Part shown: positions 2,525-12,767 of the stretch, one piece after another
Position numbering within the stretch: position 1 is the first letter of the stretch
Layout: each line of letters opens with the position of its first letter
DNA from: Patescibacteria group bacterium UBA661
GTDB taxonomy: Bacteria > Patescibacteriota > Minisyncoccia > Phycocordibacterales > UBA918
Length of the DNA: 64,000 nucleotides
Assembly: GCA_002299465.1 (NCBI GenBank)
Contig: DBNX01000014.1
Span: 19,052 to 83,051 of the forward strand
Direction: 5' to 3'
The notes under the pieces: generated by a model
What the model was told of the DNA's origin: nothing
Database searches by the model: none
The model's input: the letters and a program-made list of their open reading frames with translations, nothing else
Translations under genes and position numbers: made by a program

Positions 2525-4219
2525 ATGACACAAGAAACCGCTTTGGAGATTTTGAAAACGGGAGCGAATGTTTTTCTCACAGGTGAACCGGGGGCTGGTA
2601 AGACTTATGTCATCAATCAGTACATAGCGTGGCTCGAAGCGGCGGGACTTAAAGTAGCAGTTACGGCTTCAACTGGTATTGCTGCTACGCACATTGGTGG
2701 ACTCACCATTCACTCGTGGAGTGGCATCGGTGCCCGAGACACACTTACGCATTATGACCTCGATCAAATAACAACCAAAGAAAAATTAGTGAAGCGTATC
2801 AAAAAGACGCAGGTGTTGGTGATTGATGAGGTGTCGATGCTTGACGGCAAGTTACTCGATATGGTGGATGTGGTTTGTCGCACCATCCGGGAGTCAAAAG
2901 AGGCGTTTGGTGGTATGCAGGTGGTTTGTGTCGGAGATTTTTTTCAATTACCGCCAGTGGCACGAGCGGGTGAAGTGTCACGCTATGCTTTTGAGTCACG
3001 CGCGTGGGAGAATTTATCCCCCCTAACTTGCTATCTAACCGAACAGCATCGCCAAGAAGATGAGTTGCTACTCAGTCTTTTGGGGGCAATCAGACGCGGC
3101 GAGATAGAGGAGGAGCACTACACTTTACTCGGAGAACAAGTCGCCATTGCTTATGCGGACATCGAACCGACTCGTCTGTACACGCACAATGCTGATGTGG
3201 ATGCCGTTAATTTGGCTAAATTGCGCGAATTATCAGGTGCGGTCCAAAACTTCACAATGACTGGGCATGGCAATCGTGTCTATCAAGAATCCTTGACGCG
3301 TAATTGTTTGTCGCCAGCCCAATTAGCGTTGAAAGTGGAAGCGATGGTGATGTGTACAAAAAATAATTTTGAAGCTGGTTATGTCAACGGTACGCTGGCT
3401 AGGGTGGTTGGTTTTGATAATTATGACAAGTACCCGATTATTGAAACAGCTGACAAAAGACGAATCACAGTGGAGCCGGTTACTTGGGAAGTGGTTGAGC
3501 ATGGTCGGGTTTTGGCGTCGATTGAACAGGTACCATTGCGTTTGGCTTGGGCAATTACAGTGCACAAAAGCCAAGGGATGTCACTAGACGCGGCTGAGGT
3601 AGATTTGTCGCGAGCGTTTGTTTATGGGCAGGGATACGTGGCGCTGTCGCGCGTGCGTGCACTGGCTGGTCTTAAAGTGCTGGGTGTTAATCCAAACGCG
3701 CTAATGGTCGATTCAAAAATCATCAACCAAGATGTTCGCTTTCGGAGTGATTCGGAGGCAGCGGAAGAAACTTTTACAGCTTTAGACCGACAGGAATTGC
3801 TTGGTATGCACGAACGTTTTGTGAAAGCCAGTGGTGGTAAACTCCCCACGGCTACCGCCACGGCTGAGGCAGTTTCCAGAGTTGGCAAACGTTTGGAGGG
3901 AGAGAGTACCTATGAACAAACTTTGCAAGCGTTAAAACAAGCTAAGTCATTGGGTGAACTCGCTCAAATGCGTAATTTGGCAGTGACAACAATACTTGGA
4001 CATCTCGAATATTTAGCAACGGCTGATAAATTAGAAAAAGACCTAATTTTGCCACTGTTGGCGGATTTTGCTGACAATAAAAAGGCTAAAGCGGCTGTTT
4101 ACGCCGCCATTGCTACTCATGGGGCAGAAAAATTAAAACCTCTTTATGAAGCAACCGATGGTAAATATGATTATCTGTTAATACGGCTTTTGCGGGTGGC
4201 TTACCAGTTGGGGATATAA
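2525..4219 (+). CDS. PIF1/RecD-like ATP-dependent DNA helicase
   Basis: Walker A GEPGAGKT at the N-terminus, DEVSM Walker B, and the order of AAA_30 then UvrD_C-like regions (QGMSLD...VALSRV) typical of PIF1-family helicases. Confidence 0.7.
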   Translation: MTQETALEILKTGANVFLTGEPGAGKTYVINQYIAWLEAAGLKVAVTASTGIAATHIGGLTIHSWSGIGARDTLTHYDLDQITTKEKLVKRIKKTQVLVIDEVSMLDGKLLDMVDVVCRTIRESKEAFGGMQVVCVGDFFQLPPVARAGEVSRYAFESRAWENLSPLTCYLTEQHRQEDELLLSLLGAIRRGEIEEEHYTLLGEQVAIAYADIEPTRLYTHNADVDAVNLAKLRELSGAVQNFTMTGHGNRVYQESLTRNCLSPAQLALKVEAMVMCTKNNFEAGYVNGTLARVVGFDNYDKYPIIETADKRRITVEPVTWEVVEHGRVLASIEQVPLRLAWAITVHKSQGMSLDAAEVDLSRAFVYGQGYVALSRVRALAGLKVLGVNPNALMVDSKIINQDVRFRSDSEAAEETFTALDRQELLGMHERFVKASGGKLPTATATAEAVSRVGKRLEGESTYEQTLQALKQAKSLGELAQMRNLAVTTILGHLEYLATADKLEKDLILPLLADFADNKKAKAAVYAAIATHGAEKLKPLYEATDGKYDYLLIRLLRVAYQLGI

Positions 4220-4330
4220 TTCTAGGTGGGTAATTTTTGGGTGTAGACTATTAACTAGGGGGCTAGAGATAGTCTTTTTCGTAGTTTAATATTTATTGAT
4301 TCAATCAAACTAAACACCATAATTTTATTT

Positions 4331-5293
4331 ATGAACTTAAAACATTCTTTACCAGCACTTTTAATTGTCGCTACAGCTGGAGTGGTGGCTCCAGCTCCTG
4401 TTAGTGCTCAGATCTCTATTCCAAATGAGATAGTTAATGAGGCATCTAGAGCTTTACAGGCGGAAGTAAATGCGCGCATGGCTACTGCTAGGGTCATTGA
4501 AGCAGCTGAGCAGTCTCTAGAAAGGTTAGAGAGAGCAATTTCACGCACTACTTTAACAGGTAGTGCTAAAGAAAGTGCTCTTGATCAACTTACGCAAGCC
4601 CGAGGCGTCTTGGATAGGGCCAGAGCACAACAAGACGACCGCGCTTGGCGCGAAGCACAACGCTCAGCAACGGAAGCGAGGCGGATAGCGGATCGAGCGA
4701 TTACCACCTTAAGTAGAGATGAACAGCGAGCAAATAGAGACAGCGCCGCCGCGGCTAGAGCTATTCAAACCGCTGAGCGAGCAATAGAAAGATTTCAAAC
4801 AACACTAAGAGGCACAACCCTCTCGGGTGATCATTTACAAAGAGCGCAAGGGTCTCTCGCTGAAGCCCAGGATCTTCTTGCTACCGCCAGAGCCCAGCAG
4901 ACTGATCGACTCTTCCGCGAAGCACAGCGTACAGCTAGTCAGGTTAGCCGGATTGCTGATAGGGCCAGAAGCACGCTAATCAGTCAAGAAAGAAGAGTAA
5001 ATAGCGCTGGTGCTGCCACTACCAGAGCCATCCAGACTGCTGAACAATCCCTAGAAAGATTAGAAAGAGCCATCTCAGGCAGCAGAGTAGTCGGCGATCA
5101 TCTGCAAAGAGCTCAGAGCTCTCTCGCTGAAGCCAGAGATCTTCTCGCTAGAGCCAGAAGCCAACAAAGTAACCAAGCTTTTGCTGAAGCGCAGCGTACC
5201 GCCAATCAGGTCAACAGTCTAGCGCAGCGAGCAATTACGCAACTTGAACAAGCTCAACAAAGACAAAATCAATCGCCACAAGGGACCTACTAA
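4331..5293 (+). CDS. secreted alpha-helical tandem-repeat protein (hypothetical)
   Basis: Signal peptide MNLKHSLPALLIVATAGVVAPAPVSAQ, then roughly 80-aa internal repeats (AIQTAE..LERAISG...GDHLQRAQ.SLAEA.DLLA.AR.QQ....FREAQRTA.QV). Sequence is Ala/Gln/Arg-rich. Confidence 0.6.
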   Translation: MNLKHSLPALLIVATAGVVAPAPVSAQISIPNEIVNEASRALQAEVNARMATARVIEAAEQSLERLERAISRTTLTGSAKESALDQLTQARGVLDRARAQQDDRAWREAQRSATEARRIADRAITTLSRDEQRANRDSAAAARAIQTAERAIERFQTTLRGTTLSGDHLQRAQGSLAEAQDLLATARAQQTDRLFREAQRTASQVSRIADRARSTLISQERRVNSAGAATTRAIQTAEQSLERLERAISGSRVVGDHLQRAQSSLAEARDLLARARSQQSNQAFAEAQRTANQVNSLAQRAITQLEQAQQRQNQSPQGTY

Positions 5294-5312
5294 TTTTTTA
5301 GAAGCTTATTCT

Positions 5313-5348
5313 AAAAACACCCCAGCTGAATTCAGATGGGTTGTTTTT
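5313..5348 (+). terminator. imperfect hairpin with embedded T-run downstream of the 4331..5293 gene
   Basis: aaaaacacccc agctgaattcagat gggttgtttttt; the stem has one mismatch. Confidence 0.4.
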
Positions 5349-5415
5349 TGATGATAATTTATTTCTTGTAAAACACTATGCTAGAATAATAGGGTGAAGC
5401 CCACGGTGGTTTCGT

Positions 5416-6288
5416 TTGAAGTTTGTTAAAAAAGAAAATAATTCATTTATGAATCTAAAATATTCAATTACAGCACTTTTATTGGTCGCCATGGTGGGCA
5501 TGGTTTCACCAGTGACAGTAAACGCCCAACAACCAAGTCCAACCAATTTAACTGAGCTAATGGAACGACTGCAAAGTCTCATTAAACAAGTAGAAGAATT
5601 ACAAAGGCAAATGAAAGCGTTGCGAGGGGAAGCGAGACCAGAAAAAGAAGCGAAGCCAGAAAAAAGAGATAGGGAACAAAAAGATCATCCACGAGCAAAA
5701 AATGCCAGCACTACGGCCGCTGCGGCGATTGCTGACGCGGAGAGGGCAATTACTGCCTTAGAGAGAGCCATCAGTGGAGCTACAACAACAGTCAGAGTTA
5801 ACACAATAAGAAACGCTGAAGACGCTTTAGATGACGCCCGAGAAGAATTAGCGGAAGCCCGAGAAGAATTTTCCGAGCAGGAGTTTCGTGACGCACACCA
5901 AACAGCGAGAGCGGCTCAGCGAGTGGCAGAAAGAGCCACTGCTAGACTGACTGGTAGCGAACGATTGGAGAGGAGAAATTTTGACAAAGATGATGATAAG
6001 GACGACAAAGACCGTTCAGCTTTAACAAGAAACGCCAGCACGACGGCTAGTCGAGCGATTGAATCTGCTCAAAAATTAATTGAAAGATTAGAAAGAGAAG
6101 TCACTAACACAACAGTGGCTGAGGAACGCTTAGAGGATGCGGAAGAATATCTTGATGATGCTATGGAAGAATTGGCTGAAGCCAGATTAGAGTTCTCAGA
6201 GCGAGATTTTCGTGACGCAGAAATGGAGGCCAGAGAAGCCATTCGTTATGCGGAAAGAGGACTGAAAATCCTAGAACAAGCTAGTTAA
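5416..6288 (+). CDS. secreted alpha-helical repeat protein, paralog of the 4331..5293 gene (hypothetical)
   Basis: Signal peptide MNLKYSITALLLVAMVGMVSPVTVNAQ is nearly identical to the neighbour's. Two copies of the motif AI..AE.AI..LERAISG.TTTV..N.....EDALDDA.EELAEAR.EFSE.EFRDA, plus a KDDDKDDKD acidic linker. Confidence 0.6.
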   Translation: MKFVKKENNSFMNLKYSITALLLVAMVGMVSPVTVNAQQPSPTNLTELMERLQSLIKQVEELQRQMKALRGEARPEKEAKPEKRDREQKDHPRAKNASTTAAAAIADAERAITALERAISGATTTVRVNTIRNAEDALDDAREELAEAREEFSEQEFRDAHQTARAAQRVAERATARLTGSERLERRNFDKDDDKDDKDRSALTRNASTTASRAIESAQKLIERLEREVTNTTVAEERLEDAEEYLDDAMEELAEARLEFSERDFRDAEMEAREAIRYAERGLKILEQAS

Positions 6289-6304
6289 AAAACTTATCGA
6301 AACC

Positions 6305-6335
6305 AAAAACCACCCAAACAATTTGGGTGGTTTTT
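6305..6335 (+). terminator. rho-independent terminator
   Basis: Perfect hairpin aaaaaccaccc-aaacaattt-gggtggttttt followed by a T-run. Confidence 0.7.
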
Positions 6336-6453
6336 GGTTTGTAGATCGACCCCCAACAGGAGTAAAACTCTTTGGAGTAAGTCAGACGCATGTTTTTACA
6401 CAAGTCGCCACATAATATTGTTTAGTTTATAATTACAAAATTGGACTAATTGT

Positions 6454-6916: not shown

Positions 6917-8155
6917 ATGAAATATTTTTCTGCTGGCTTAAGCAAAATTGGAGCTTTATTTTTGGCGATGTTTTTGGTTGTGCCAATGACAGCGGTGTCC
7001 GAGACGGTTTCTTACGCTGGAGTAGCCGACCCACTGCCGGTGATTGTTTTTGGGCGAGATGATTGTGGTTTTTGTATTGAACAATTTGAGTTTTTGGCGG
7101 CAAATCAAATTGATTACGTCTATTACAATATTGTCGAAGATCCGACGGCTCGGGAGTTATTCAACCAGCTAACCGAAAAACACCAGCTCTCCAGAGTTAC
7201 TCCGATTACAGTGGTGGGCGAACAAGTGTTTGTTGGTTTTAACGGCGGAGAGACTACTGGTAAAAGGATTTTGACGGCTCGTCTTAGCGATGAAAATAAT
7301 ATCAGAACGATTGAAGACCACCTTGCTCTAGCGACACCAGTATCGGTACAGGCGGAGGATGCTTGTACTGATGTGGCTTGTGTGGATGTCGCCAGTAGCA
7401 ACTTTGTCTACGAACTACCTTTTTTGGGAGTGGTCGATTTGCGTTCGTTTTCTTTATTTTCGCTGTCGCTTATCTTGGGGGTGATTGATGGCTTCAATCC
7501 TTGTGCGATGTGGGTGTTGGTGACTTTCTTGGTCTTACTTTCACAAGCGGGTAGTAAGAAAAAGATGATTGTCTTAGCCGGGGTTTTTATCCTAGCTCAA
7601 GGCATAATGTACAACTTAATTCTCAACGTCTGGTACAAGACGTGGGATTTTATAGCCCTTGATGAGATTGTGACACCGCTGGTGGGCTTTCTCGCGCTTG
7701 GTGGCGGTGCGTTTTTCCTCTGGCGTTGGCATCGAAACAAAAAAACTGAGTTGGTCTGTGATATTACAAACATCGAGACTCAGTCAAAGACCATCAACAA
7801 ATTCAAACAAGTTGTTAATCAACCAATTACCATCGCGTCTTTGTTGGCTATTCTCCTCATTGCTTTTTCAGTCAACGTAATTGAATTTGCTTGTTCCATC
7901 GGTATTCCGCAGGCCTACACAAAAATCCTTGAGATGAACGCCTTGGCTTTTCTGGAGCGACAAGGGTACATTCTGGTCTTTACTCTCGGCTATATGTTTG
8001 ATGATTTTGTGGTATTTGCGTTGGCGATTTGGGGTTACTCGCGTCTGCAGGCACACGGCGGAAAATACGCCCAACTGTCTCTGCTGATCGGTGGTGTTTT
8101 GATGTTATTCCTCGGCTTGATACTTTTGTTAGACCCTAATATTTTTAAGTTTTAG
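6917..8155 (+). CDS. fusion of a glutaredoxin/thioredoxin-like domain with a CcdA/DsbD-like thiol:disulfide transmembrane protein
   Basis: Signal/TM at the N-terminus, then a Grx-like segment (VIVFGRDDCGFCIEQFEFL...ITVVGEQVF), then 6 predicted TM helices with conserved Cys in TM1 (GFNPCAMW) and a later TM (EFACSIGIP), as in the CcdA/DsbD core. Confidence 0.5.
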   Translation: MKYFSAGLSKIGALFLAMFLVVPMTAVSETVSYAGVADPLPVIVFGRDDCGFCIEQFEFLAANQIDYVYYNIVEDPTARELFNQLTEKHQLSRVTPITVVGEQVFVGFNGGETTGKRILTARLSDENNIRTIEDHLALATPVSVQAEDACTDVACVDVASSNFVYELPFLGVVDLRSFSLFSLSLILGVIDGFNPCAMWVLVTFLVLLSQAGSKKKMIVLAGVFILAQGIMYNLILNVWYKTWDFIALDEIVTPLVGFLALGGGAFFLWRWHRNKKTELVCDITNIETQSKTINKFKQVVNQPITIASLLAILLIAFSVNVIEFACSIGIPQAYTKILEMNALAFLERQGYILVFTLGYMFDDFVVFALAIWGYSRLQAHGGKYAQLSLLIGGVLMLFLGLILLLDPNIFKF

Positions 8156-8295: not shown

Positions 8296-9381
8296 ATGTT
8301 AAGGAGATTAAGAAGATTGAGAAGAATTATTAGAATCGTAGGTACTGTTTTTTTAGTAGCAGCAGCGGTTGTCGTCTCTTCGTTTGCTCCGATAATTGCC
8401 GTACCATTACTGTGGCTTTTTGGTTCTACTCCAACATCAGCACCGCCCCCTCCTCCGGCAGCGATTGTTTGTACTCCAGTCACTCACGAAAGCGATGGCG
8501 CTGGTGGTTGTCGTCCAGTTTTAGCGCCACCAACTAATGTGAGTGTTTTACCAATAGGCTGCGGCGGTGCGGTAAGTGTTACTTGGGACCCGGTCAGCAG
8601 AGCTGAGCGCTATGAAGTCTCGATAAACGGTGGGAGTTGGGTTAGTGTTACCCCGCCCCGACGACATATTTTTTCAGACTTAACAGTCAGCTCCAACCAA
8701 ACCGTCACTGTGCGTGCACATGCTTGGGATAGCTCTACGCCAGGGCGTTCGGCACCAACGTCGGCTAGTGGTTTAAGTTCTGGTGTTTGTAACGAACTTA
8801 ATGCCGGCAACTGCTTAATCCCAGCTGGGGCCAATAACTGCAACGCCTCGGTGGTGTGGGATATGACAGGTAACCCCAGCCCGTTTCGGATTGAAAATGA
8901 AACTAACAGCAACACAATCATAGGTAACACAGCTTCAGGAACGCAAAGTGCGACCATATCGTATGGTAATAATACTATAAATGCGTTTAGTAATAACATG
9001 TTAATTAATACCGACATTTCCACAGCTACTTGCGTACCACAGCATTTCTTTCTTGACCTTACGCAAACCTGTCAACCTAACCCAATTATCACTATCACTC
9101 CCGAGCCAATTTGGGTACGTAGTGGAGACACTGCAGAAGTAAATATCAACATCAACGCCCCGTATGATCTGGAGTGTACTCTCGCAGGTGACATAGCTAA
9201 CACCCCTTTATTTACGCACACCGGATCAATAAATCCAGTAGGTGATTATTCAATCGATACAGTACCGATTAGTGCTACTCGCATCTTGTCAGTGTCTTGT
9301 AATACTCCAGCTAACGACTTGCAGCCACCAGCCAATGCGGAGACTCGTATAAATATGGTTCCAAGAATGCAGGAGATGTAG
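8296..9381 (+). CDS. membrane-anchored surface protein with Pro-rich linker and FN3-like domain (hypothetical)
   Basis: Arg-rich N-terminus with a TM helix, a PPPPP linker, a segment VSVTWDPVSRAERYEVSINGGSWVSV resembling fibronectin type III, and an Asn/Thr/Ser-rich C-terminal region with several Cys. Confidence 0.4.
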   Translation: MLRRLRRLRRIIRIVGTVFLVAAAVVVSSFAPIIAVPLLWLFGSTPTSAPPPPPAAIVCTPVTHESDGAGGCRPVLAPPTNVSVLPIGCGGAVSVTWDPVSRAERYEVSINGGSWVSVTPPRRHIFSDLTVSSNQTVTVRAHAWDSSTPGRSAPTSASGLSSGVCNELNAGNCLIPAGANNCNASVVWDMTGNPSPFRIENETNSNTIIGNTASGTQSATISYGNNTINAFSNNMLINTDISTATCVPQHFFLDLTQTCQPNPIITITPEPIWVRSGDTAEVNININAPYDLECTLAGDIANTPLFTHTGSINPVGDYSIDTVPISATRILSVSCNTPANDLQPPANAETRINMVPRMQEM

Positions 9382-10026: not shown

Positions 10027-11103
10027 ATGGAAACAGCAGTTTTACTTTTGTTGGCGTTAGTTTTGGGGGCTTTAGGTTTGGTGCTTTATGTGCTTTTTAC
10101 CAAAAAGACCGACCCAAAAGATAACCAAGCCCTGATTCTGATGCAACAACGCATTGAGGAACTTTCTCGTACTTTAGACACAAAATTGACCGAAGCCAAT
10201 CGAGCCATGCAGGAGGGGAGTCGGGTCCAATTTCGGGAAAGTCGCGAACTCATTCAAGCTATCAATCGCGAGGTTAATGAGCAATTGCGTGATGTGGTGA
10301 TAAAAACTACCGAAGTCAGCGAAAGTAGTAAACAAGTTTTTCAGATTGCTGATCAGCTAAAAGAGTTGCAGAGTATTCTAAAAAATCCAAAACAAAGAGG
10401 TATCTTGGGAGAGTATTATTTGGAGACTGTGCTACAAAATGTTTTGCCACCGGAGGGTTTCAAAATGCAATACGCTTTTACTGATGGGGAAGTGGTCGAT
10501 GCCGCGGTTTTTGTGAAAGGAAAAATCATCCCTGTTGACTCCAAGTTTTCTTTAGATAATTACAATCGTCTGGTGGAAGCGGCTGACGGTGCCGATAAAT
10601 TACAGCACGAAAAAAACTTTCTCAATGATCTTAAGCTTAGGATTACTGAAACCGCCAAATACATTCGCCCCACGGAGGGAACGATGGATTTTGCTTTTAT
10701 GTTCATTCCGCACGAGGGTATTTACTACGATTTACTTTCCAATCGAGTGGGTGCGGGTGAAGAAAATCTTATTCAGCGAGCGGCTGGTAAGTATCGTGTA
10801 ATTATCGTTTCCCCGACTTCTTTTTTGGCATATTTGCAAACAGTACTACAAGGTCTTAAGGCGCTTGAAATTGAAGAAAAAGCTCAGGACATTATCAAAA
10901 ATGTCGATAAGCTGAGTGGCCACATTGCTAAATACGAAGATTATTATCAAAAACTAGGAATGTCTTTAAGCACGACTGTCAATCATTACAATGCCGGCTA
11001 CAAAGAACTAGGGAAAGTAGACAAGGACATTTTGAAAATTACTGGTGAGAAGGTGGGTATAGAGACGCTTACTTTGGATAAGCCACAAAAGATTGATGAT
11101 TGA
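10027..11103 (+). CDS. rmuC: DNA recombination protein RmuC
   Basis: N-terminal TM helix, long coiled coil, and the conserved RmuC core (DFAFMFIPHEGIYYDLL...VIIVSPTSFLAYLQ). Confidence 0.8.
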   Translation: METAVLLLLALVLGALGLVLYVLFTKKTDPKDNQALILMQQRIEELSRTLDTKLTEANRAMQEGSRVQFRESRELIQAINREVNEQLRDVVIKTTEVSESSKQVFQIADQLKELQSILKNPKQRGILGEYYLETVLQNVLPPEGFKMQYAFTDGEVVDAAVFVKGKIIPVDSKFSLDNYNRLVEAADGADKLQHEKNFLNDLKLRITETAKYIRPTEGTMDFAFMFIPHEGIYYDLLSNRVGAGEENLIQRAAGKYRVIIVSPTSFLAYLQTVLQGLKALEIEEKAQDIIKNVDKLSGHIAKYEDYYQKLGMSLSTTVNHYNAGYKELGKVDKDILKITGEKVGIETLTLDKPQKIDD

Positions 11104-11414: not shown

Positions 11415-12767
11415 ATGGAAAGAACTTTAATCAGCTCACTAGCTGAGCACATTGAGAAAGAGGTTGTCATTAAAGGTTGGATTGATGTAGCGCGCGATCA
11501 AGGTAAGGTTATTTTCTTTGATTTACGCGACCGCACCGGTGTTGTGCAAGGCGTTGTTTTTGGTAAACCTGAGATTCTAGAAACAGCAAAAACCGGACGG
11601 GTTGGTTGTGTTGTGTCTGTCACTGGTAAAGTCCATAAACGTCCCGACAAAATGCGCAACGACAAAGTGCAAAACGGCGATATTGAACTAGAAATTACGA
11701 ATCTCGAAATAATCAATACCGCCCTACCCATGCCTTTTGCGGAGGATGCCGAACTTAACCTCGACACTTTGCTTGATTATCGTCCGCTTACCCTACGCCG
11801 CGAGCGGGAGCGAGCTATTTTTAAGATTCAAGCTGAAATCTTGGTTGCTTACCGTAACTACCTTAACAGCCAAGGATTCACAGAGTTTCAGGCCCCTAAA
11901 TTAGTTGGTGGTGACGCTGAGGGTGGGGCGGAAGTTTTTCGGGTAAAATATTTTAAAGGAGTGGAAGCTTCACTTGCTACTAGTCCGCAACTTTACAAGC
12001 AAATTATGGCGGGTGTGTTTGAACGAGTCTATGCGGTTGGTCCAACTTTTAGAGCTGAAAAAAGCGCCACCACTCGGCATCTTTCGGAGATATCAATGCT
12101 GGACTTGGAAATGGCTTTTATCAAAGACCATACGGATGTGATTACCTTAGTCACTAGCTTGATGCGGGAAATTGTAGAGCATATCAATGACACTTGTGCC
12201 AAAGAATTGACGCTCTTAGGGCAGCCCTTGGCTCTGGCGCCACAAACCTTTCCCGTAATGACCCTGCGTGAAGCGCAAGCCCTGATCAAGAAAGAAACTG
12301 GTGTTGACAAGACCCAAGAACCCGACCTGGAACCAGAAGACGAGCGTTTTCTTTGTGATTATGCTAATAAACATCTCCACTCGGACTTTGTGTTCGTCAC
12401 ACATTTTCCAACCAGCAAACGTCCGTTTTACACTCACATCGACCCAGCTTGTCCGGAGTTTACTCGTAGTTTTGACCTTCTTTTCCGTGGTTTGGAAATG
12501 TGTTCGGGTGGACAGCGTGTCCATAAGTACGAAGAGTTAGTTGAACGCATAAAAAGTAAGGGGCTTGATCCAGATAAGTTTCAGTTTTACTTACAGGCCT
12601 TTAAGTACGGCATTCCACCGCACGGCGGAATCGGTCTGGGCTTAGAACGTCTTACCGCTAAGTTTTGCGGAGTTACTAACGTCAAAGAAGCTACTCTTTT
12701 CCCGCGAGACATCAACCGCATAGATACTTTCACCAGTCAGGAACAAAGTGAAACGGCAGACCTTTAA
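11415..12767 (+). CDS. aspS: aspartate--tRNA ligase, short archaeal/non-discriminating type
   Basis: 450 aa with an N-terminal OB anticodon-binding domain and class II motifs (FRAE, GGIGLGLERL). Lacks the bacterial GAD insertion. Confidence 0.9.
   Translation: MERTLISSLAEHIEKEVVIKGWIDVARDQGKVIFFDLRDRTGVVQGVVFGKPEILETAKTGRVGCVVSVTGKVHKRPDKMRNDKVQNGDIELEITNLEIINTALPMPFAEDAELNLDTLLDYRPLTLRRERERAIFKIQAEILVAYRNYLNSQGFTEFQAPKLVGGDAEGGAEVFRVKYFKGVEASLATSPQLYKQIMAGVFERVYAVGPTFRAEKSATTRHLSEISMLDLEMAFIKDHTDVITLVTSLMREIVEHINDTCAKELTLLGQPLALAPQTFPVMTLREAQALIKKETGVDKTQEPDLEPEDERFLCDYANKHLHSDFVFVTHFPTSKRPFYTHIDPACPEFTRSFDLLFRGLEMCSGGQRVHKYEELVERIKSKGLDPDKFQFYLQAFKYGIPPHGGIGLGLERLTAKFCGVTNVKEATLFPRDINRIDTFTSQEQSETADL

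Follow-up and report, generated by a model that had tools for sequence, protein, structure and literature searches.

DUF4398 (PF14346) is a family of exported three-helix bundles of ~80–95 residues, represented by Pseudomonas aeruginosa PA2901 and Leptospira LipL71 (LruA). In LipL71, the domain is combined with LysM (PMC5406399), and Borrelia BB0323 joins LysM to a spectrin-like N-domain that acts as a protein-protein interaction platform (PMC12758692). In spectrin and EzrA (4uy3/4uxv), and likewise in the N-domain of BB0323 (6rjw), successive three-helix bundles are joined by a helix that runs on from one bundle into the next. Here we describe two adjacent genes, A and B, within a 64,000-nucleotide stretch of contig DBNX01000014.1 (positions 19,052 to 83,051 of the forward strand; hereafter the window) from the Patescibacteria group bacterium UBA661, which encode predicted exported proteins whose repeats are very probably divergent relatives of DUF4398. 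The Patescibacteria, or candidate phyla radiation (CPR), combine tiny genomes with envelopes and modes of host attachment about which little is known.

Family and predicted fold of the two repeat proteins

An earlier note on this DNA had singled out A and B as a tandem pair of paralogs with Sec-type export signals and long helical repeats. The paralogy is borne out by BLASTP, which aligns A with B at E 2e-33 without composition correction and E 3.5e-17 with it, and by a Smith-Waterman comparison of the mature proteins, where the score of 246 stands against 80 ± 10 for 300 shuffles (z = 16). A and B are true paralogs, far above what chance or common composition would produce. Their parts are as follows, those of B running in the order signal peptide, coiled-coil leader, charged linker, repeat, KDDDKDDKD linker, repeat:

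4331–5293, + strand: gene A, a 320-residue predicted exported protein with a signal peptide and three DUF4398-like repeats
4331–4408, + strand: A signal peptide (residues 1–26), predicted cleavage VSA/QI, MNLKHSLPALLIVATAGVVAPAPVSA/Q, by sequence inspection (−3/−1 rule)
4463–4732, + strand: A repeat 1 (residues 45–134), by repeat alignment and in-register sub-threshold DUF4398 match
4733–4999, + strand: A repeat 2 (residues 135–223), DUF4398 at 17.4 bits, E 0.0065, profile positions 2–71 of 78
5000–5257, + strand: A repeat 3 (residues 224–309), by repeat alignment and in-register sub-threshold DUF4398 match
5449–6288, + strand: gene B, a 279-residue predicted exported protein with an ATG start
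5449–5526, + strand: B signal peptide (residues 1–26), predicted cleavage VNA/QQ, MNLKYSITALLLVAMVGMVSPVTVNA/Q, by sequence inspection
5539–5631, + strand: B heptad coiled-coil leader (residues 31–61), LTELMERLQSLIKQVEELQRQMKALRGE, a helix over residues 31–61 in the model
5632–5697, + strand: B linker rich in Lys, Glu, Pro and Arg (residues 62–83), from a MAFFT alignment with related proteins of loci L005, L012, L008, L072 and L043
5698–5970, + strand: B repeat 1 (residues 84–174), by repeat alignment and in-register sub-threshold DUF4398 match
5971–6027, + strand: B acidic inter-repeat linker (residues 175–193), RRNFDKDDDKDDKDRSALT, the one KDDDKDDKD linker
6028–6285, + strand: B repeat 2 (residues 194–279), by repeat alignment and in-register sub-threshold DUF4398 match

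The sizes given in the earlier note hold for A (320 residues), whereas the 290 residues given for B apply only to the listed open reading frame from an upstream TTG (5416–6288). From the ATG at 5449, which is also the start of the public gene call on the same contig, B has 279 residues, the first 27 of which mirror the N-terminus of A. The KDDDKDDKD-type linkers reported for B are likewise reduced to a single one, which lies within the RRNFDKDDDKDDKDRS separating the two repeats. The repeats themselves, ~89 residues each in A, are present as described, three in A and two in B, together with the core motifs AIQTAEQSLERLERAISG, AIADAERAITALERAISG and AEARDLLARAR. Their alignment has 13 invariant columns, most of them occupied by Ala, Leu or Ile with the spacing of a helix core, and the third helix begins with an aromatic residue. 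The mature proteins are 29–32 kDa in size, neither A nor B contains a single Cys, and neither an LPXTG motif nor a transmembrane segment is present at their C-termini (...QNQSPQGTY and ...KILEQAS).

Both N-termini have the layout typical of cleavable Sec signal peptides: a basic n-region with a single Lys precedes a hydrophobic core of 18 residues, and positions −3/−1 are small (V-S-A in A and V-N-A in B). This agrees with the export signals originally proposed. No lipobox Cys is found in either N-terminus as read from the sequence. The two signal peptides are identical at 15 of 27 residues, and a similar signal-peptide-like N-terminus occurs in 89 of 101 family proteins. In the AlphaFold2 model of A, residues 1–28 have a predicted local distance difference test (pLDDT) value below 50.

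A profile built from the five repeats, used in an exhaustive HMMER search of 1.84 billion cluster representatives, retrieved 100 proteins with E-values of 1e-3 or lower; for nine of these, E was at most 1e-10. Among 98 profile-matched proteins scanned with Pfam, DUF4398 is present in 62 (best E 4e-18) and the peptidoglycan-binding domain PG_binding_1 (PF01471) in 61, and within the top profile match the DUF4398 region (253–329) coincides with the region of the repeat profile (244–323). A reciprocal hidden Markov model (HMM) made exclusively from outside matches, without A and B, returns A at 147 bits and B at 108 bits, and hhalign of the A/B repeats against 21 outside domains gives a probability of 98.1% (E 9e-14, 82 columns). 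Taken singly, the five repeats score 11.4–17.4 bits against DUF4398 (E 0.0065–0.47), in register with profile positions 2–77 and below the Pfam gathering score of 27.9 bits; whole A and B give no DUF4398 match in Pfam at E ≤ 0.1. The repeats and DUF4398 have a common core pattern, A..AI..A...I...(loop)..A...L..A...L..A......[YFW]..A...A..A...A..A. Because the profile search, the reciprocal HMM, hhalign and the in-register sub-threshold matches all point the same way, we assign the A/B repeats with high confidence, fold and family taken jointly, to divergent DUF4398-like domains that formally fall under the Pfam threshold. The statement that the proteins belong to no known family is thus accurate at the level of Pfam thresholds and gives way at the superfamily level. 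The earlier note had named a hit to a characterised family as one finding that would speak against it; a relationship to DUF4398 was found, yet DUF4398 itself has no characterised function, so that strictly this objection does not apply.

Direct Pfam and NCBIfam scans yielded nothing above threshold, with DUF5667 (E 0.011) reported for A and DUF2564, PMEI and TIGR01614 under their cut-offs for B, and the repeat consensus had no match in Pfam. The sub-threshold matches to DUF5667, DUF2564, PMEI, HEPN, DUF1771, PTS_IIA, TPR, Surf_Exclu_PgrA and SMC were set aside as generic helical-bundle or coiled-coil noise, because they were under cut-offs, inconsistent between repeats or without the defining residues. 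Word-indexed searches with A and B recovered only A and one marginal match, an absence that is uninformative given that the list of 8000 candidates was saturated by low-complexity words; the exact B sequence is not present in that collection. The PDB was searched by sequence with A and B, with a single repeat, with the repeat profile and with a family profile of 30 sequences; the only matches, all marginal, were to designed helical proteins, keratin and HEPN. A literature search turned up DUF4398 in three papers, each time as a table entry, and a search for acidic peptidoglycan-binding surface proteins of Patescibacteria found nothing specific.

The single-sequence AlphaFold2 model of A (pLDDT 87.7) comprises seven helices (residues 32–72, 78–101, 106–161, 167–191, 195–250, 256–280 and 284–314), two of which, each 56 residues long, cross the repeat boundaries. 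The model predicts three three-helix bundles in a spectrin-repeat arrangement, where the last helix of one bundle is the first of the next, and helix lengths suggest a rod of roughly 12–13 nm. The model of B is weaker (pLDDT 68.8), yet it consists of helices along its whole length, and the leader forms a helix of its own. Structural matches to the A model include the spectrin-like domain of EzrA (4uy3; score 10.9, 3.3 Å, 171/194, 8% identity), the DUF4398 protein PA2901 (4fm3; 10.2, 1.9 Å, 94/95 residues, 18%) and the spectrin-like N-domain of the Borrelia 'LysM domain protein' BB0323 (6rjw; 8.8, 2.7 Å, 153/161, 9%). Indeed, one repeat of the model superimposes on 4fm3, an antiparallel three-helix bundle of ~95 residues. 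Designed three-helix bundles reach scores similar to those of all three matches, therefore the fold alone is no proof of homology, although it agrees with the sequence evidence.

A variable slot and its repeat proteins

Six public contigs encode exactly the A protein, among them one of 107.9 kb from a JGI metagenome and those of two Logan assemblies. Both genes belong to a Patescibacteria genome of the Paceibacteria type. Relatives of the flanking PIF1-like helicase, with 59–80% identity, occur in 80 genomes, all of them metagenome-assembled genomes of Patescibacteria/CPR (Paceibacteria, Kaiserbacteria, Nomurabacteria and 'Elulimicrobium'), and the gene order FAD-oxidase (−), PIF1, slot, YgjP-like, Grx-membrane protein, ..., YqeY (−), RmuC is kept in about 60 related genomes. 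A and B are the contents of a variable slot inside this conserved housekeeping backbone. When the window interval 4220–6453 was compared with the related loci (L004–L083), both PIF1 and YgjP were present at 61 loci, where the two genes are adjacent in 27, enclose one or two DUF4398-like repeat proteins in 23 and enclose other content in 11. The PIF1–YgjP interval is therefore a presence/absence hot-spot in Patescibacteria. The slot of L004 holds an unrelated 401-residue secreted protein.

All but two of the 25 slot repeat proteins also carry a peptidoglycan-binding module, and PG_binding_1 scores 38–53 bits in the slot orthologs tested, relative to a cut-off of 23. A typical slot protein opens with a signal peptide and a heptad leader (LLxxLQSLMKQVExLQKQL). 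PG_binding_1 comes next, then a stretch ('PPGLLRAPGI') that bears a Cys pair, and a linker of poly-Asp/Glu leads to the repeats, of which there are one or two. Examples are:

L005, 8243–9454
L012, 1798–3018
L008, 11735–12940

Residues 1–83 of B match slot proteins in BLASTP at E 4e-8 to 1e-3 with 37–41% identity and, as judged from these alignments, the B leader is a homologue of the one that stands before PG_binding_1 in the related proteins. Protein A has no leader, its N-terminus matching only the B signal peptide. Neither A nor B has a PF01471 match. The MAFFT alignment shows that ~170 residues of the orthologs, spanning PG_binding_1, the Cys pair and the poly-Asp/Glu segment, are replaced in B by the 22-residue charged linker, so that B reads as the slot-protein architecture minus its peptidoglycan-binding segment. 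Anchor-less versions have also arisen elsewhere (L024 and L078).

Identity between repeats is 47–57% within A, 54% within B and 34–39% between A and B, compared with up to 42% between B and the orthologs and at most 36% between A and the orthologs. In addition, the A and B signal peptides resemble each other and not those of the orthologs. On these grounds, the simplest history would have B descending from a slot protein, with A as a product of local duplication that went on to lose the leader and grow to three repeats. The two proteins differ in charge: mature A has a pI of 11.2 and a net charge of +9, with 43 Arg, 1 Lys and 36 Gln, and mature B has a pI of 4.9 and a net charge of −15. Across the family (n = 99), proteins have a median net charge of −53 and domains one of −21.5, and the five positive members are Lys-rich. 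Thus, A is a clear charge outlier, a lineage-specific Arg/Gln-rich basic derivative within a hyper-acidic family.

Other arrangements occur in the slot. L066, the closest relative by its helicase (80%), has a 155-residue protein consisting of only a signal peptide, leader and PG_binding_1 (L066, 4042–4509) and, after it, a second slot gene with PG_binding_1 and two repeats (L066, 4685–5695); shuffling of modules between neighbouring genes is thus evident. The slot also takes a second type of protein, which differs in its leader, ILARMDEIIKEMQSLRTEF, and in carrying extra repeated acidic modules of ~45 residues that end in ...DEDEIIEEIADELDxDEDDVEDxIEFD. In the L053 protein, the only case scanned, these modules matched no Pfam family. 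Proteins of this type lie at:

L046, 9275–10744
L051, 11690–13204
L053, 3351–4898
L071, 11824–13218

Putative expression signals and neighbouring genes

The following elements flank the two genes:

4296–4323, + strand: promoter-like element upstream of gene A, TTGATT-16-CATAAT, a consensus scan match only
5317–5350, + strand: terminator-like hairpin and U-run after gene A (−16.3 kcal/mol, z = −2.9)
5437–5442, + strand: −10-like hexamer AATAAT upstream of gene B, 6 nt before the ATG; found by eye, weak evidence
6300–6340, + strand: strong intrinsic-terminator-like hairpin after gene B (−28.1 kcal/mol, z = −6.25; 0/200 shuffles fold as well)

The −10 hexamer of gene A ends 7 nt before its ATG, and no Shine-Dalgarno sequence is present upstream of either gene, such that both mRNAs may be leaderless. 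The consensus promoter scan did not report the B hexamer, for which the −35 spacing is 15 nt. This hexamer is contained in a block, ATAATTnnATTTATGAA, that is common to A (4318–4333) and B (5437–5451), and the core promoter seems to have been part of the duplication. The end of the stretch originally singled out, at 6335, corresponds to the B terminator.

Codon use was compared between 4331–6288 and the neighbouring housekeeping genes at 2525–4219, 10027–11103 and 11415–12767. AGA accounts for 22 of 43 Arg codons in A and 15 of 33 in B, and is rare in the housekeeping genes (1–3 per gene); the GC content at third codon positions is 0.35 for A and B versus 0.40–0.44, and the AT skew of 4001–6000 is 0.19. 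This bias could stem from a mutational route that started at acidic or Lys codons, from membership of another expression class or from a foreign origin. Searching phage genomes with A by tblastn gave no match and hence no hint that the genes come from phages, and the window yielded no matches in Rfam and tRNA scans.

The neighbours that the earlier note grouped with the pair into a small secretome island are present, but they do not amount to a dedicated island: YgjP/DUF45 and the Grx-membrane protein belong to the conserved backbone, and only the slot contents vary. The Grx-membrane protein (6917–8155) has 412 residues, with an N-terminal glutaredoxin-like domain (CGFC; Uxx-star/YruB-like matches under cut-off) and a polytopic membrane part. 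It is 55–68% identical to its counterparts, which lie beside the YgjP-like gene in most related genomes and thus outside the slot. A link between this thiol-disulfide protein and A/B was rejected, because A and B have no Cys and the gene stands in the backbone whether the slot is filled or empty. The 'FN3-like' membrane-anchored protein (8296–9381) has no Pfam or NCBIfam match and one weak relative (L023, 32%) among 80 related loci, and the interval from the Grx-membrane gene to yqeY therefore seems to be another slot in which surface proteins vary. The public annotation of the contig lists an N6_N4 methyltransferase, a ResIII/YagJ helicase-like gene and a small open reading frame immediately upstream of the window (L001, 1–4697), probably a restriction-modification or defence module.

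Possible functions and comparison with known systems

Starting from the paralogy, repeat anatomy, family relationship, synteny, domain loss and charge shift described above, we propose that A and B are envelope-associated structural or docking rods made of DUF4398-like bundles, an explanation to which, as a whole, we give even chances. Both would be Sec-exported, elongated rods of tandem three-helix bundles of the DUF4398-like superfamily. B would be a local descendant of the wall-anchored slot architecture from which the peptidoglycan-binding segment was lost, and A a lineage-specific paralog reduced to signal peptide and repeats, three in number, in which an acidic protein would have become strongly basic. 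After export, the rods would remain within the wall zone, where they would serve as structural spacers or as scaffolds for protein docking; protein-protein or electrostatic contacts, and not direct binding to peptidoglycan, would retain them. The partners of basic A might be anionic components of the wall or acidic B, and the leader may allow B to oligomerise.

An envelope-related role, also favoured by the earlier note, is the most plausible theme. The more specific function as wall-zone scaffold, spacer or docking rods is put forward tentatively, on the grounds that the DUF4398-like module recurs beside peptidoglycan-binding domains, namely PG_binding_1 in CPR bacteria and LysM in Leptospira LipL71, and that BB0323 pairs LysM with a spectrin-like interaction platform. 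A bolder version, which we regard as a long shot, would see the Patescibacteria family as an extracellular 'spectrin-like' wall skeleton of peptidoglycan-tethered rods that determine the spacing and charge of the envelope. Here the tether would have given way to a secreted, electrostatically paired heteromer of basic A and acidic B that coats the cell or bridges it to a host. An envelope scaffold of this kind, with two charge-complementary components and no tether, would have no described precedent in bacteria.

The rods could instead be released to, or displayed at, the surface of an episymbiont and bind the host envelope, with basic A attaching to anionic host polymers, but we consider such host-contact adhesins unlikely. 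Also rather unlikely is that the proteins act as analogues of anionic wall polymers, setting surface charge and binding Mg2+ or Ca2+, with A and B as a charge-balanced pair. The strongly negative median charge of the family, both per protein and per domain, its usual tethering to peptidoglycan via PG_binding_1 and its poly-Asp/Glu linkers are in keeping with such polyions. The window proteins themselves fit poorly, since A is basic and B mildly acidic, the conserved Ala, Leu, Ile and aromatic core positions indicate selection on the fold and not on charge alone, and no metal-binding motif was detected. By analogy with the four-helix bundles of plant PMEI, a proteinaceous inhibitor or regulator of a cell-wall enzyme might be envisaged, and B repeat 2 does match Pfam PMEI (PF04043; E 0.0011, 19.6 bits) and TIGR01614 (E 9e-7, 28.4 bits) in a family that associates with peptidoglycan-binding modules. 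These scores are nevertheless under the curated cut-offs of 29 and 35.95 bits, respectively, the conserved disulfide cysteines are absent from the Cys-free A and B, the repeat unit is three-helical in the model and no wall hydrolase gene is linked to the slot, making this reading very improbable.

The S-layer and LEA-like roles raised in the earlier note fare worst. Such roles would suit predicted exported, repetitive and hydrophilic proteins; however, the Pfam/NCBIfam scans revealed no SLH, S-layer or LEA match, the mature size is small for S-layer proteins, and a slot that is empty in 27 of 61 related genomes is hard to square with a core S-layer gene. The compact bundles predicted for the repeats, with a conserved hydrophobic core, likewise contrast with the disordered 11-mers of a desiccation protectant, so that we see next to no prospect for either role. 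It is also very doubtful that the proteins stay in the cytoplasm as coiled-coil or EzrA-like scaffolds, the N-terminal hydrophobic stretch being an uncleaved anchor or irrelevant. The best multi-repeat structural match is indeed the cytoplasmic EzrA domain, and signal peptide cleavage was read from the sequence only. Opposing this, the n-h-c layout with V-x-A at −3/−1 is typical of cleavable signal peptides, such N-termini are a feature of 89 of 101 family proteins, and most of the family carry an extracytoplasmic peptidoglycan-binding domain, and even if uncleaved, the single N-terminal Lys would place the rod outside the membrane.

Placed in this family, the pair draws attention to a recurrent, uncharacterised class of exported proteins, with a peptidoglycan-binding domain and hyper-acidic DUF4398-like repeats, that fills a defined variable slot in many Patescibacteria genomes, the two window proteins being derived versions in which the anchor is lost from both and the charge reversed in one. 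DUF4398, with its solved structure and uncharacterised role, thereby gains a clear cell-wall context across CPR bacteria, spirochetes and proteobacteria. As a small, soluble and cysteine-free pair, A and B should be easy to express for biophysical tests.

In comparison with known systems, A and B do not constitute a new type of system, and the functional inference is weak. The Patescibacteria slot proteins occupy the same PIF1–YgjP position and have the same type of C-terminal repeat (27–42% identity per repeat to B), with the signal peptide and leader being shared by B only. The window proteins lack the PG_binding_1 domain, Cys pair and poly-Asp/Glu linker of these relatives, and A additionally lacks the leader and has three repeats; nor is the strong negative charge of the family shared by A or B. 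Compared with PA2901, a lipoprotein with a single 13-kDa DUF4398 domain, A and B hold three and two tandem copies arranged as a rod, and they are distinguished from DUF4398 lipoproteins by the missing lipobox, the sub-threshold Pfam scores and, for A, the strongly basic character. Spectrin and EzrA resemble A and B in architecture, as does the BB0323 N-domain with its consecutive bundles and continuous connecting helix, but neither A nor B has a sequence match to the spectrin repeat family model (PF00435) or to EzrA, and they are not members of either family. Overall, A and B differ from their known relatives in four ways, namely their sub-threshold sequence, the tandem rod, the lost peptidoglycan anchor and the charge reversal in A.

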